A stretch of DNA of 64,000 nt from a virus (Duplodnaviria > Caudoviricetes): the IMG/VR virus record IMGVR_UViG_3300028886_000051; one strand, written 5' to 3'. The position numbers and the translations under genes are program-made. The notes under the pieces are model-generated. The model was not told the origin of the DNA. It saw only the letters and a list, made by a program, of their open reading frames with translations, and did no database searches. Positions 42,885 to 54,420 of this stretch are shown in pieces (the stretch's first letter is position 1; the number at the start of each line of letters is the position of its first letter).

Positions 42885-43135
42885 AAATAGTATCAGTATA
42901 AAGCACTAACTAGCTGATATTGCACTGTACACATGCAGTTATTTAGAATATGGTCGCTTATCCGCAACCTAATTCATGCTTCCTAATTATTCTCCACATA
43001 TTTTAGGTCTTGGGAGCAAAGACCGATTGATAAGATTTAATGGCTCTTATCCGTCAATTAAAGGCTCTCATTAACGTAGAGAAGCACAAAACCCATTTCT
43101 CCTAAAACATCCAACTGATTTATGTCTGTTGGCAG

Positions 43136-44446
43136 GTGAACTACCACGAAGCTAAAGCTTCGATGGCTTCTTGTTTCTTCGTCCTCGTAACCTACTAACT
43201 CCACAAGCGTAAATTCCGACAATTCCTGCCGTACTAAAATTGTTACTAAGCTACTTACAATATTCTTAAACCTTCATTGAGAATATTCTTTGCAGCATTA
43301 ACATCTCTGTCATGAACAGTACCACATTGAGGACAAATCCATTCTCTTACGGATAAATCCTTTGTGCCTGAATTAACATAACCACAACAGTTACAAGTCT
43401 GAGATGAAGCATAGAATCTATCAACTTTAATATATTGACGATTATTCCATTCTGCTTTATAACTTAATTGTCTTGTTAATTCATACCATCCACAATCTGA
43501 AATTGCCTTGGCAAGATTATGATTCTTTACCATATTAGATACTGCCAAATCCTCACTTACGATTACTTGGTTTTCGCTAATCAACTTATGAGAGATTTTA
43601 TGTAGATTATCAATTCTGGTATTATGAATCTTTTCATGTATTCTTGCTACTTTTATTCTCTGTTTATTCCAATTCTTACTACCTTTTACTTTATGAAACA
43701 ATTTTCGTTGTTCCTTTGCTAATTTATCTTGATATTTCTTGGTAGTATGTATATTGTCAAACTTTTCTCCATCAGAGGTGATAAGTAAATCTTTAATGCC
43801 TAAATCAATACCAACCATTCTGCCAGTAGATTCCATTGAAATATGTTCTATTTCTACTAAAACAGATACAAAATATTTTCCAGATGGAACTTGTGAGATA
43901 GTAGCAGATTTAATCTTACCTATGAACTCACGATGTATTTTTGCTTTAACCCATTTGAGTTTTGGTAATTTAATTTCATTATTCTCAAAAGATATTTCGA
44001 TGTTTCCATTTGTAAAATTAGTTGAGTATGACTTTTTATTATTATGTTTACTTTTAAATTTGGGATATCCAGAATGTTCTTTGAAGAACTTCTGATATGC
44101 AGAATCCATATTGTAAATTGCATTCGTGAGAGCAAATTTATCTACTTCTTTTAACCATTCGTACTCCTTTTTGAGAATTTGATTACAATAATTATTACAA
44201 GAAGTTTTATTCATAGATTCTTTTTGTGTTTCATACATTTCTTTTCTATGAGATAGCGTTTGATTATATACAAACCTACAACATCCAAATGTTTTCTGAA
44301 TTTGTTCTTCTTGCTGTTTATTTGGATATAATCTGTATTTATAGGCTTTTAACATTTACTTATCACCTCCTCTAATGTATATTCTATGTTTTGTACGGCT
44401 CTTTACCCATCAGCTAAAGCTAATGGGATTGCGAGCCTATTTTATT
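43136..44446 (-). mobile_element. Non-autonomous IS200/IS605-family (IS1341-type) element
   Basis: Left end follows TTGAA, with guide CAAT at +16..+19 and hairpin CCCATTAGCTTTAGCTGATGGG. Right end has guide GAAG, hairpin CCATCGAAGCTTTAGCTTCGTGG and terminal TTCAC. Both fit IS608-type guide/cleavage pairing. No tnpA. Confidence 0.85.
43255..44355 (-). CDS. tnpB: TnpB RNA-guided endonuclease
   Basis: KAYKYRLYP N-terminus, RuvC motifs GIDLG / SEDL / DRDVNAA, and CxxC-CxxC Zn finger, all intact. Confidence 0.95.
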   Translation of the reverse strand: MLKAYKYRLYPNKQQEEQIQKTFGCCRFVYNQTLSHRKEMYETQKESMNKTSCNNYCNQILKKEYEWLKEVDKFALTNAIYNMDSAYQKFFKEHSGYPKFKSKHNNKKSYSTNFTNGNIEISFENNEIKLPKLKWVKAKIHREFIGKIKSATISQVPSGKYFVSVLVEIEHISMESTGRMVGIDLGIKDLLITSDGEKFDNIHTTKKYQDKLAKEQRKLFHKVKGSKNWNKQRIKVARIHEKIHNTRIDNLHKISHKLISENQVIVSEDLAVSNMVKNHNLAKAISDCGWYELTRQLSYKAEWNNRQYIKVDRFYASSQTCNCCGYVNSGTKDLSVREWICPQCGTVHDRDVNAAKNILNEGLRIL

Positions 44447-44978
44447 TTCAAAACTCTCGATTTGGATTTTGCCACGAAAATTACATAAAATTCGTTGCAG
44501 AGTTTGGTAGAAGATAAGATATACTGCATTAAGGTTTCGTGCGCACTAGAGTCGTTATATAGTCGGCTCTACCAAAATGCAGTAGTAGGACTTACAATGC
44601 TATATGAATAGCAAATGCCAAGATATTTTAATATTCTCTGTTTGGTAGGTTTTTGCTGGTAGAGAAACACCAACGGATTATAGCACCACATAACTCTTGC
44701 TTGTGCACTAAGCTGTAACAGGATACCTCACCTACAATGTTCTACATTGACTCAATACATATTCTGACCGTGTATTTCGGTATATATTTATTCTCTTATT
44801 TTTGGAATATTTTGACAGAAAATGTCATATAATATATAATAGAAAGGACAAGCGATTATTCAACATCTTGTTTTGGCTAGAATGAGATAGTAAAAGGCGG
44901 TTTATGAGTCACGTCAGAATAGTGATATTCTGTTTATCTTATAGATACCCTTGCTAAGAAAGGAGGGTGATATACGAA

Positions 44979-45101
44979 GTGACAATAGTTGTTGAATTTA
45001 TTATTGGAATTATTGGCAGAATTGTAAGTAGTGTATTTGCTACATACTTAGTACGCCTCTTAGATAAATTTACACACAAAAATAACCGCCACGAGAAGTA
45101 A
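44979..45101 (+). CDS. Type I toxin-like hydrophobic peptide, 40 aa
   Basis: TTGACA-17-TATAAT at 44812-44840, AAGGAGGG RBS, GTG start: MTIVVEFIIGIIGRIVSSVFATYLVRLLDKFTHKNNRHEK* (transmembrane helix plus basic tail). Confidence 0.75.
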   Translation: MTIVVEFIIGIIGRIVSSVFATYLVRLLDKFTHKNNRHEK

Positions 45102-51409: not shown

Positions 51410-52627
51410 TTATTTTTCAAATAAATCTGCGAACATTTTACTTGTTTCAGATCTAACATCTTCTCCAAGATAAATGCAGCCAAATTTTTCATTACCCTTG
51501 AATTCATTACACATCTTAATAAGAGGGTTATTAACCGTCTTAGTAAGCAATGACTGTTTATAATCACCAGAAAGATAAATGCGACTGTTTTCGCCAAGTC
51601 TAGTGCCAATTAGTCTAATTTGACTTTCTGATAAATCCTCTGCCTCGTCACAAAGAATAATTGTTTGATTATATGTAGTTCCTTTCATAAAAAAAGGGAC
51701 ATTCGTATCTAAAATGCCACTCATTTTTAAACTCTGCAACTCAAATTCTCCACCATTAAGCGATTGAGTTAATGGTTCAAAGAATTTACCAACTTTATCT
51801 TCGATATCACCAGGAAGATAGCCAATTTCTTTTCCCTCACCAGAAACTTCTCTAACACCAAGGATTTTACTTGCTCTACCTTTTTCTTGAACATTATATA
51901 AAGCCATTTGCATAGAAAGGTAAGTTTTTCCACTGCCATATCCACCTAAAATAGCAGCAATAGTAATATCTGGATTATTAAGAATATCTAACGCACATCT
52001 TTGTAATGAATTTTTAGCTTTGATATATCTTGATGATGGTAATTTTAAAGTAACAAATGCAAAACCATCGAATCTCATTTCCTTAAAAGTATTGTCATCT
52101 GTATTTTCGATAATCAGATATTCATTAACGTGCCAATCTGAATAATCAATATTTTGCATATAAAAATTAATTTTATCAGCATTACCACGAATAATTTTAT
52201 ACCCCTTATAAATTTCATTACCATCTTCACATATACTTTCAACATTTAATCCAAAAATCTTACTTGCAATCATTTTACAAGCAATATCATCTGTAACGAA
52301 AACAACATCCTTCATTGCATTTATAAATGCACAGCTACTAATTATTTTAGTATCAGGTGTTATTTCCATATTTTTTTCAAGTATGTAGTTTTCAATTGCG
52401 TTGTCATATACGATAACATCATATTTATCCGAATTATCATCAAGTAGATGCAAAGCTCTTCGTGCCTCATACTTTACTTGATCATCTTTGTTTCGAGATA
52501 CCTTGATATGCTCTAACTCTTGTAATGTTACAGAACTTATAATAAAATTTTCCTCAAATATTTTGTCCTGTAATTTTAAAATAGCATTAGTATCATAAAA
52601 TTTCATTGTACCGATGGTTTCAACCAC
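51410..52627 (-). CDS. phoH: PhoH-family ATPase with N-terminal PIN domain
   Basis: FYDTNA...LQELE...D.KI...TDD (PIN), then GGYGSGKT, GYLPG, DEAE, TRLGE.SR and GD..Q. Confidence 0.9.
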   Translation of the reverse strand: MVETIGTMKFYDTNAILKLQDKIFEENFIISSVTLQELEHIKVSRNKDDQVKYEARRALHLLDDNSDKYDVIVYDNAIENYILEKNMEITPDTKIISSCAFINAMKDVVFVTDDIACKMIASKIFGLNVESICEDGNEIYKGYKIIRGNADKINFYMQNIDYSDWHVNEYLIIENTDDNTFKEMRFDGFAFVTLKLPSSRYIKAKNSLQRCALDILNNPDITIAAILGGYGSGKTYLSMQMALYNVQEKGRASKILGVREVSGEGKEIGYLPGDIEDKVGKFFEPLTQSLNGGEFELQSLKMSGILDTNVPFFMKGTTYNQTIILCDEAEDLSESQIRLIGTRLGENSRIYLSGDYKQSLLTKTVNNPLIKMCNEFKGNEKFGCIYLGEDVRSETSKMFADLFEK

Positions 52628-52648
52628 CTTTCATTTTAAATTTCGTTC

Positions 52649-52819
52649 CTATCCAACGATTTTACTTTTTCTATAATTATTTAAAGCCTTTAAATTCTGA
52701 TAAGACTCAACCAGATAATATTTTGCATGACCACTATAAGTCTTTTTTACATTCTCATTTCCAACAAGTTTCCTCATTGCAAAAGCTTCTGTTTTGTTAA
52801 TTAATAAAATAATTTTCAC
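52649..52819 (-). CDS. Small hypothetical protein, ~55 aa
   Basis: Open frame ILLINKTEAFAMRKLVGNENVKKTYSGHAKYYLVESYQNLKALNNYRKSKIVG* after AAGGATGTG. Confidence 0.55.
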   Translation of the reverse strand: MKIILLINKTEAFAMRKLVGNENVKKTYSGHAKYYLVESYQNLKALNNYRKSKIVG

Positions 52820-52855
52820 ATCCTTAAATTTATTTCCTACAAAGTAGGATAGTAG

Positions 52856-52930
52856 TTGGAAATGTAGGATTTGAACCCACGACCTCCTGAACCCAAATCA
52901 AGCGTTCTAACCAAACTGAACTAATTCCCA
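52856..52930 (-). tRNA. tRNA-Pro(TGG)
   Basis: Acceptor TGGGAAT/ATTTCCA, D arm GTTC/GAAC, anticodon arm CTTGA-TT TGG GT-TCAGG, T-loop TTCAAAT. Confidence 0.88.
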
Positions 52931-52969
52931 AAATAAAAAATCCCATACCGAAGTATGAGATCCTTACTT

Positions 52970-53752
52970 AATATGAGCTGAGATATTTGACTCAATACAC
53001 TAACATCTACTGTAGTTGGACACAGTTTATCACACAAGCGATTAGCTTGTAGTTAGCAACAACACCGATTTTGACATAATCGGCAAACTCTTACCACAAA
53101 GTATTATAGATTTTCTTTCTGCACATTCTTCCTTGCGAGATTCATAGGTTGCAGCCTATTAGAGTTGCACGTACTTGTACTTTCTCACATAACACCTTGC
53201 GAGTGTTACATGTGTCCATATTACAGAACAATAAGTTGTTTTTCTCTCTGTGGTCGTACACACTTTTGCTTTTATATATTAAAAACTTTATTCTTGTTCT
53301 TTAATAATTTGTAATTTGATTTACCAAAAGTCTGTACTTATAAAATAGATGATGAGGTGTACATTTGACCATCCGTACCTTTTGAGTACAGCCCAATCGT
53401 CACCATCCTGTCTTCCTTGCTATCGGAATCCTTTATTACAAAACACCTATCTTTCGATTTAAGATATTTATATAATAATTTAAACAGCACTAATTCTTGC
53501 GGAACTCGTACCATTTAGACATGGATTATCCCCACATTTCTGTGTTAATACAGTACCTATCCCAAGATACCTACCCAACCATATTCGCCAACAGTCGTCC
53601 TTGAATAGAAGGTTAGGTATAAATCCTATGTGTTTTCTGTCAAACTATATTTCTATAGTCGCAGCTTTGTAATACGACAAAGCCACTTTATACATGTTAC
53701 CATGTTTATTTTTGAGATTTAACATCTCCTGATCCGAAACCAACCAGTCCTA
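52970..53752 (-). ncRNA. GOLLD-like giant ncRNA (~780 nt)
   Basis: ORF-free, GC-enriched, with many GCAA/GAAA-capped hairpins. GUACUCAAAAGGUAC, AGCAAAAGUG and 3' AUCUCAGC motifs recalled from GOLLD. Lies between tRNAs, followed by a UUCG terminator (~52962-52935). Confidence 0.7.
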
Positions 53753-53766
53753 CAAAAGTAGGAGAG

Positions 53767-53842
53767 TTGCTGAAGCACAGGAGTCGAACCTGCTATTACA
53801 TGGTTATGAGCCATGTGTGATAATCCGTTTCACTCGCCAGCA
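53767..53842 (-). tRNA. tRNA-Met(CAT), atypical
   Basis: Anticodon arm CATGG-CT CAT AA-CCATG and T arm GCAGG-TTCGACT-CCTGT. The acceptor stem needs a bulge (TGCTGGC vs GCTTCAGCA). Confidence 0.7.
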
Positions 53843-53930
53843 ATAATATATTTGAGAATAATCGGCAACCATACTGCCAGAACGGCAGTACAGCTACCAA
53901 TATAAGAAAAGAGTTAAGATGTATCTTTTT

Positions 53931-54390
53931 TGATACTTGTAAAAAAAGCTGAAATAATTTATAACTTTAACCAATTTGTGGAATTTAGATAAAATATAAT
54001 TCTTATACTTTAATGTAATAATATTATATTTATCTATCATTCATTATCATCTGAAATTTTATAATTTCATTTATTCATATTTTTAAACCAATTTTTTGAA
54101 AGAATCTTCTTTACTAAATTAATTTTACAAAGCGTGTCACAAATTGTTGTTTTTTACAAATTTTCAATATATCATATTAACAAATTAACGAGTAACAAAT
54201 CTGAATACGAATAATATCTAACAATTACCTATTATGTATGTAGTATTTAATCCATCATTATATTTACTTACTTGTTAATAATTAATAATTTAATATTATA
54301 TGGCTAATATCCAGCCTTGCAGCGTTATAGTTCATCTGCATCTGAACCGATTAACAATTATGAATCAATTCAGCTCTTTTACAAATACCA
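53931..54390 (-). ncRNA. Unnamed ~460-nt RNA closed by a long terminal stem, directly downstream of the 204-aa gene
   Basis: 54390-54369 UGGUAUUUGUAAAAGAGCUGAA pairs with 53953-53931 UUCAGC(U-run)ACAAGUAUCA, and pairing continues inward imperfectly for ~20 more bp. No ORF on the sense strand. Confidence 0.6.
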
Positions 54391-54420
54391 AATATGTAGA
54401 AGTAGAAGAAGTGAAGTGGG

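Follow-up and report, generated by a model that had tools for sequence, protein, structure and literature searches.

A tnpB-only insertion sequence lies within a predicted structured non-coding RNA gene upstream of tRNAs in a large gut phage

The 64,000-nt stretch analyzed here (the window) corresponds to bases 2233-66232, on the minus strand, of the 145,752-bp IMG/VR virus record IMGVR_UViG_3300028886_000051, which has an estimated completeness of 85%. Between a tyrosine recombinase gene and a pair of tRNA genes, it carries an insertion sequence (IS) encoding a predicted RNA-guided nuclease, TnpB. The locus raises the question of what the IS interrupts and what a TnpB might do in such a place. 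A reading made from the letters of the window only (the sequence-only reading) had proposed a giant RNA of the ROOL type, split by a tnpB element whose guide is taken from the RNA. The best explanation of the comparison with related phages is that a non-autonomous, tnpB-only IS inserted 3' of TTGAA in a single-copy gene for a conserved, modular non-coding RNA, where TnpB would act in homing or interference. This explanation is given a probability of about three in four. Within it, the activity of TnpB, the motif and guide length it would use, the homing or interference and the loss of RNA function are all predictions.

The boundaries of the IS are exact. Removal of the 1311 bp from 43136 to 44446, the extent given by the sequence-only reading, joins GAGTTTTGAA|CTGCCAACAG as that reading had stated, and the uninterrupted form is present exactly in eight IMG/VR phage contigs. 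The 20-mer across the junction (GAGTTTTGAACTGCCAACAG) is likewise exact in eight viral contigs. In five relatives (L005, L009, L004, L026 and L011) the homology found by BLAST and nhmmer is contiguous across the join, with window position 44447 abutting 43135, and a hidden Markov model of the intact relatives matches the window in two pieces that abut at the same two positions. A shift of the boundary by one base either way fails to reproduce the empty site. Comparison of the empty and filled sites indicates insertion 3' of a conserved 5-nt motif, without target-site duplication or inverted terminal repeats. The search for empty sites in relatives, which had been proposed as a check, returned 35 contigs with an uninterrupted RNA core, consisting of 15 IMG/VR viral contigs (82-186 kb) and 20 human-gut metagenome contigs; the exact junction is found in eight. 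A motif scan with AAATCCCAATCNAGAGTTT added only chance matches (L201-L204), and BLAST of either flank against an annotated phage collection gave no match. The RNA-bearing phages are a group of large gut phages.

The element itself belongs to a known IS family and is unremarkable within it; what is unusual, and informative, is its location. The subterminal hairpins at its two ends share the loop AGCTTTAGCT, as read from the sequence, and the IS is present as a single copy in the phage genome. The Y1 TnpA transposase (PF01797) was not found in the 146-kb record, which leaves membership of the IS200/IS605 family standing, as in IS1341-type members. Related tnpB copies with 65-86% protein identity are abundant in other large gut phages, in Lachnospiraceae and in other Clostridia, and DNA homology to the related copies covers the element from base 1 to base 1311. 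Since these copies are abundant in the genomes of Lachnospiraceae and other Clostridia, the host is most likely a gut member of the Clostridia, which could provide the transposase in trans. None of the 160 tnpB loci that were fetched holds the interrupted RNA. Of 80 related phage tnpB loci, 10 (L061, L062, L069, L071, L091-L093, L098, L100 and L101) have tRNA genes at a distance of up to 1.5 kb, in every case on the same strand as tnpB; insertions of this IS family may be tolerated in tRNA islands. An IStron (PMC10690162) was also considered and rejected, since no group I intron was detected by Rfam and the left end lies only 91 nt before tnpB.

The nuclease domains of TnpB appear complete. 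The protein contains the HTH_OrfB_IS605, OrfB_IS605 and Cas12f1-like TNB domains (Pfam E-values of 1e-21 to 2e-26) and aligns end to end with the ISDra2 TnpB structures (8bf8, 8exa and 8h1j; E-value 3.8e-86). The catalytic residues had been called intact, and D184, E268 and D351 do align to D191, E278 and D361 of ISDra2. Both CxxC pairs of the zinc finger are present (CNCC and CPQC).

The right ends of 13 family copies were aligned to define the omegaRNA. The scaffold is strongly conserved, with eight covarying pairs, and identity collapses directly after GTTCAC at the last IS base, where each copy continues into its own flank. Since the conserved scaffold stops exactly at the IS end and a copy-specific flank follows, the element is predicted to produce an omegaRNA with a flank-derived guide. 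A sub-threshold Rfam match to RAGATH-18 (43168-43207) lies inside the scaffold. In the 20 related IS copies compared, the right end invariably finishes in GTTCAC, and TTGAA or a near variant adjoins the left end; in most full-length relatives, TTGAA or a one-base variant is directly outside the left end. Therefore, with the scaffold conserved and covarying up to GTTCAC and most related copies abutting TTGAA, the prediction of TTGAA as the transposon-associated motif (TAM) and of CUGCCAACAGACAUAAAUCA as the guide is well supported. The same TAM and guide had been assigned in the sequence-only reading, and IS-free relatives carrying TTGAA and the target agree with the assignment. The TAM of ISDra2 is TTGAT, a difference from the 5-nt TTGAA at the left end here. 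In the RNA, the guide bases supply the 5' arm and the loop of a conserved hairpin. The phage genome has a single occurrence of the guide 20-mer, with TTCAC rather than TTGAA directly before it. Cleavage by TnpB would be expected where TTGAA precedes the target.

The interrupted gene is read here as a real, uncatalogued, modular structured non-coding RNA. Its core of about 240 nt runs from AUCUUGGCAUUU to GGAGAAAUGGG in the alignments and has 85-90% identity across the relatives. The 5' part of the core in the window holds four helices of the consensus fold, and the 3' part matches positions 187-292 of the nhmmer profile (E-value 5e-25). In the consensus fold of 11 sequences 96.7% of cells are paired, with seven compensatory pairs compared with one or two in slid controls, and the observed covariation score was reached by none of 500 shuffles. 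With 23 distinct sequences there are 10 covarying pairs, and the 3' module gives five more. The fold has about seven helices in the core and three hairpins in the 3' module. The rejoined block had been described as structured, and the covarying helices in the core and the 3' module bear this out. On the opposite strand, several invariant G-U pairs would turn into C-A; since they fit only one strand, the RNA is assigned to the strand of the tRNAs. A small open reading frame (ORF) in the core was considered and rejected, because indels of 1, 4 and 8 nt break any frame.

The modular character of the RNA is seen 3' of the core. Alternative hairpins, in which the stems differ by compensating changes (UUCUC/GAGAA versus UUCAG/CUGAA), come first. 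Then there is a variable middle, which spans 0-400 nt, and many members continue with the three-hairpin module. A borderline Rfam match to the drum RNA is located in the variable middle of a long homologue (L218:982-1088, minus strand; 43.3 bits with a cut-off of 43.0), a hint that other known motifs can be accommodated in the variable region.

The RNA block is the best-conserved DNA between the window and its otherwise mosaic relatives. Such conservation might instead reflect a DNA site, for example a phage attachment site (attP) or other recombination site of the tyrosine recombinase, or a promoter or leader, with the IS sitting in a non-essential spacer. The recombinase gene is upstream and on the same strand in most loci with enough upstream sequence, and recombinase sites often adjoin tRNA genes. 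However, the compensatory changes in several helices and the strand-specific G-U pairs argue against a DNA site, as do conservation over more than 240 nt and the modular hairpin swaps. Identity in the adjacent recombinase also varies between 28 and 99%, against 85-90% for the block, and two loci with several kilobases of upstream sequence lack the recombinase. A DNA site is therefore improbable, and a structured RNA remains the preferred reading of the block.

The RNA is followed by a tRNA on the same strand, of varying identity, in 33 of the 35 loci; of the two exceptions, L008 is cut off at the locus end. The RNA is probably co-transcribed with the downstream tRNAs and released from them. 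Conservation across all relatives begins at 44629, directly after a -10-like hexamer in each sequence (our own reading of alignment A4). The window and the L005 group have in common about 200 nt of further 5' sequence as well as a promoter-like site (minus strand, 44863-44836 in the window). The 5' end is uncertain; the RNA may start near AUCUUGGCA and end at the 5' end of the tRNA. From the core start to the next tRNA there are 284-799 nt in the relatives and 433 nt in the window after excision, while the window RNA would have about 600 nt if the L005-type extension is transcribed. The length of about 580 nt in the sequence-only reading holds for one of these forms but does not describe the family. 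The claim that the ends of the block pair was not upheld. The 5'-3' closing helix is confined to the single-sequence minimum-free-energy folds of two sequences, the window and L005; such a helix conflicts with the covarying 3' terminal hairpin, and the 5' 150 nt or so are not conserved in most relatives. No second copy or paralogue of the RNA was found in the window or the phage genome. The RNA appears to represent a family not described before, and its members have so far come from a single group of large gut phages.

ROOL and GOLLD are phage-borne RNAs that adjoin tRNAs (PMC5737381, PMC12286853), and the interrupted gene could in principle be a ROOL or a divergent ROOL. Its context is alike, with phage location and a same-strand tRNA 3' of the RNA in 33 of 35 loci, and the window/L005 form is similar to ROOL in size. 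The models of Rfam 15, where ROOL (RF03087) has a gathering cut-off of 99.1 bits, were searched at E-values up to 10 against the window, each half as its own stretch, which allows truncated matches to score, and the intact L005 homologue; 23 more homologue loci were searched at the gathering score only. Neither half nor intact L005 gave a large-RNA match at E-values up to 10 to ROOL, GOLLD or any other Rfam 15 family. At the gathering score, the window and 24 homologue loci gave only tRNAs, apart from the drum match in L218. GOLLD had no match in the window, the halves or the homologue loci, although ROOL alone had a positive control, and no HEARO match was found in the RNA homologues. The positive control was a genuine, full-length ROOL from a genome of the Lachnospiraceae family (L238:1501-2067, minus strand), which scored 358 bits. 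When only its 5' 333 nt were searched, as had been done with the window halves, the score was 153 bits (E-value 2e-34). This ROOL shows no similarity to the interrupted RNA by nhmmer or BLAST. A search for a control ROOL in three Clostridia genomes found none. The control has no tRNA within 1.5 kb.

Some of the RNA homologues, in addition, have only about 285 nt, and the chance that the gene is a ROOL of any kind is very small. The ROOL label of the sequence-only reading is wrong, and the likeness lies only in context (a phage, upstream of tRNAs) and in rough size, points in which ROOL and GOLLD are also alike. The RNA resembles ROOL and GOLLD as a large structured RNA of phages or prophages with no assigned function, placed by tRNA genes, and has conserved and variable regions as in GOLLD. 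It differs in that it matches neither model, has a core of about 240 nt with short forms of about 285 nt, and occurs in one large-gut-phage group only. For a second RNA, proposed as GOLLD-like at 52600-54420, Rfam likewise gave no GOLLD or ROOL match in the window at the gathering score. That region is a 1.8-kb gene-free stretch with a tRNA-Pro and a tRNA at 53768-53841 that is found by Rfam only (39 bits) and is not called by ARAGORN.

The absence of known RNA families also bears on whether the conserved RNA is an orphan guide RNA or a mini-transposon of another OMEGA system. This is hardly credible. The RNA is single-copy and syntenic, lying upstream of a tRNA at the same locus, and has no similarity to the IS or its omegaRNA. 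It has neither IS-like terminal hairpins nor a variable guide-like end, and no match to HEARO or another Rfam family.

The IS cuts the uncatalogued RNA between columns 222 and 223 of alignment A4. The break falls within the base of the hairpin GAAC..CCAAC(loop)GUUGG..GUUU, directly after the helix AAACUCU/AGAGUUU. In the consensus fold, the 5' piece has four complete helices and the 3' piece has the CCAAC/GUUGG hairpin and everything downstream, with only a few long-range pairs bridging the two. Since the helices are complete within each piece and few pairs bridge them, the insertion is at a domain boundary. The IS is co-oriented with the RNA gene. At otherwise invariant columns, two substitutions are private to the window RNA (G to A, and CCCAAU to CCAAAU), compared with 0-5 in most intact relatives and 11 in L225. 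By this count, the split copy has no excess of decay relative to intact relatives.

Some of the intact relatives would be suitable targets for the predicted guide. TTGAA with the exact 20-mer is present in five relative contigs, and eight have TTGAA and a 20-mer that differs by one mismatch or one inserted nucleotide from position 12 onwards. Four more contigs diverge only beyond position 15, besides a C/T difference at position 12. The TAM variant TCGAA is found in 11 contigs, and single lineages have TTAAA with a 4-nt deletion (L028/L230), TTTAC (L214) or the seed change G3A (L026). Since there are relatives with TTGAA and an exact or near-exact target, such a relative would be a substrate when it co-infects. 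The relatives vary exactly at the predicted TAM and seed (A4 columns 219-231; window 44447-44450 and 43127-43135), in a core that is otherwise near-invariant there. This variation could be the result of loose structural constraint or of escape from TnpB.

The known activities of this family suggest how the locus may work. In IS200/IS605 elements, TnpA and TnpB recognize a common TAM that abuts the left end (PMC10055086). Excision leaves a scarless donor joint, which TnpB with the right-end guide cuts, and recombination then restores the element, so that it is retained and can home (PMC10055086). In this phage, a Y1 TnpA acting in trans, most likely from the Clostridia host, would have inserted the element at TTGAA in the RNA gene, between the recombinase gene and the tRNA pair of the approximately 146-kb genome. 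With insertion at the domain boundary, most local helices would survive in each half and the covalent link would be lost. The right-end transcript would become an omegaRNA with a guide of 16-20 nt from the flank, and TnpB with this omegaRNA would cut TTGAA followed by the guide target, either in the uninterrupted RNA gene of relatives or in the excision product. The occupied site would be spared because TTCAC replaces the TAM. If the cut is repaired with the IS-bearing genome as template, the IS would be copied into the cut site (homing); alternatively, the cut may simply damage a co-infecting competitor. No promoter-like site was predicted on the tnpB strand in the IS left end; therefore, tnpB expression may rely on read-through from the RNA gene promoter, which the co-orientation permits.

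Several observations weigh against this explanation. The lack of decay in the split RNA fits a recent insertion or continued function equally well. Without a Y1 TnpA in the record, mobility would need a host enzyme. The IS, or a related IS, was not found at the RNA core in any of the 35 intact-core contigs, and a scan with the right-end-junction motif GTTCACCTGCCAACAG gave chance matches only and no second phage with the IS at the site. A single phage thus has the IS here, with no sign of spread by homing. The closest related IS copy found has about 84% DNA identity, which leaves the donor without a match. The covariation is based on 23 fairly similar sequences.

It is possible, though unlikely, that TnpB and its omegaRNA are a passive passenger, inactive or unexpressed in the phage, and that the insertion is a neutral or mildly harmful dead end with neither homing nor interference. 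One occupied site against 35 empty ones would fit a dead end, as would the left end without a tnpB-strand promoter-like site, and some natural TnpBs, such as HpyTnpB, are inactive (PMC10055086). However, the catalytic triad, the zinc finger and the omegaRNA scaffold are all intact, and each is constrained across the family; the orientation of the IS with the RNA-tRNA unit would also permit read-through expression. An active TnpB is therefore preferred. A bolder version of homing or interference can be offered only tentatively and is doubtful at present. In this version, the interrupted gene would found a family of modular, "ornate" tRNA-leader RNAs, new to science and carried by large gut phages of Clostridia; it would serve as the TnpB homing site, the fixed guide would act as a phage-against-phage weapon or gene drive, and the TAM and seed variants would be escape alleles.

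The locus can be compared with two known systems. It is like ISDra2/ISGst-type IS200/IS605 elements (8bf8, 8exa, 8h1j; PMC10055086) in its domain set, D-E-D triad, zinc finger and the TnpB match given above, and also in a scaffold that overlaps the tnpB 3' end and the right end, a right flank that would act as the guide, and scarless insertion without duplication. It differs in having no tnpA in the element or the phage (IS1341-like) and in being in a phage, inside a conserved non-coding RNA gene. As a consequence of this location, the fixed guide matches sequence common to the whole phage group. Homing endonucleases and mobile introns (PhiPA3 gp210, PMC11620839) likewise place a nuclease gene within a conserved target and are comparable in the predicted cut of a co-infecting uninterrupted allele, to the advantage of the nuclease gene's own spread or of the phage that carries it. 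Unlike these, the target here would be recognized by a guide RNA rather than a protein, and no splicing restores the host gene.

The coordinates of the features are listed in Table 1.

Table 1. Features of the interrupted locus and their positions in the window.
Feature	Position	Strand	Remarks
tnpB-only IS200/IS605-family element (IS1341-like, non-autonomous), 1311 bp	43136..44446	(-)	Left end 44446, right end 43136
TAM / insertion target motif TTGAA	44447..44451	(-)	Abuts IS left end; read directly from sequence
tnpB, 366 amino acids, ISDra2-like RNA-guided nuclease (predicted)	43255..44355	(-)	RuvC D184/E268/D351 and CxxC...CxxC zinc finger
omegaRNA (right-end element RNA, reRNA) scaffold (predicted)	43136..43340	(-)	Overlaps tnpB 3' end and right end; terminates in GUAGUUCAC
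Predicted 20-nt guide/target CTGCCAACAGACATAAATCA	43116..43135	(-)	First bases of the RNA 3' part
RNA core, 5' part	44447..44629	(-)	nhmmer profile positions 7-189, E-value 5e-61; ends in AGAGUUUUGAA
Possible RNA 5' extension and promoter region	44630..44841	(-)	BLAST, alignment A1; only L005/L009 group, about 82% identity
RNA 3' part	42886..43135	(-)	Core end 43135 to about 43030, short middle, three-hairpin 3' module about 42886-42985
HNH-repeat protein	47810-46410	(-)	First in transcription order at the locus
Tyrosine recombinase	46373-45327	(-)	Second in transcription order, after HNH-repeat protein
tRNA-Gln(UUG) and tRNA-Cys(GCA)	42885-42811 and 42807-42736	(-)	Directly 3' of the interrupted RNA, same strand
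Intrinsic-terminator-like hairpin	42694-42673	(-)	Closes the RNA-tRNA unit

All of these features lie on the minus strand of the window. After the recombinase, the transcription order is a gene-free stretch, the IS, a second gene-free stretch, tRNA-Gln, tRNA-Cys, the terminator-like hairpin and tail-fibre-like genes. A related-locus search with a neighbouring 202-aa protein gave no relatives. There is also a perfect sigma-70-type promoter (TTGACA-17-TATAAT) on the plus strand at 44812-44840, directed away from the RNA gene. Downstream of this promoter come AGGAGG and an ORF of 44 amino acids (44967-45101, plus strand) with a hydrophobic N-terminal half and a basic tail. From its sequence, the product looks like a small membrane peptide or a type I toxin-like gene product.

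The locus provides a clean natural before/after pair for a phage TnpB, in which sequence is enough to read off the filled site, its exact empty counterparts, the TAM and the guide. It suggests that the known homing role of TnpB could operate between co-infecting phages, as has been shown for protein homing endonucleases. The uncatalogued RNA, which is more conserved than the surrounding protein genes, is a candidate for the small set of large structured phage RNAs that includes ROOL and GOLLD, and nature has in effect provided a knock-out or split of this RNA in the phage that carries the IS.

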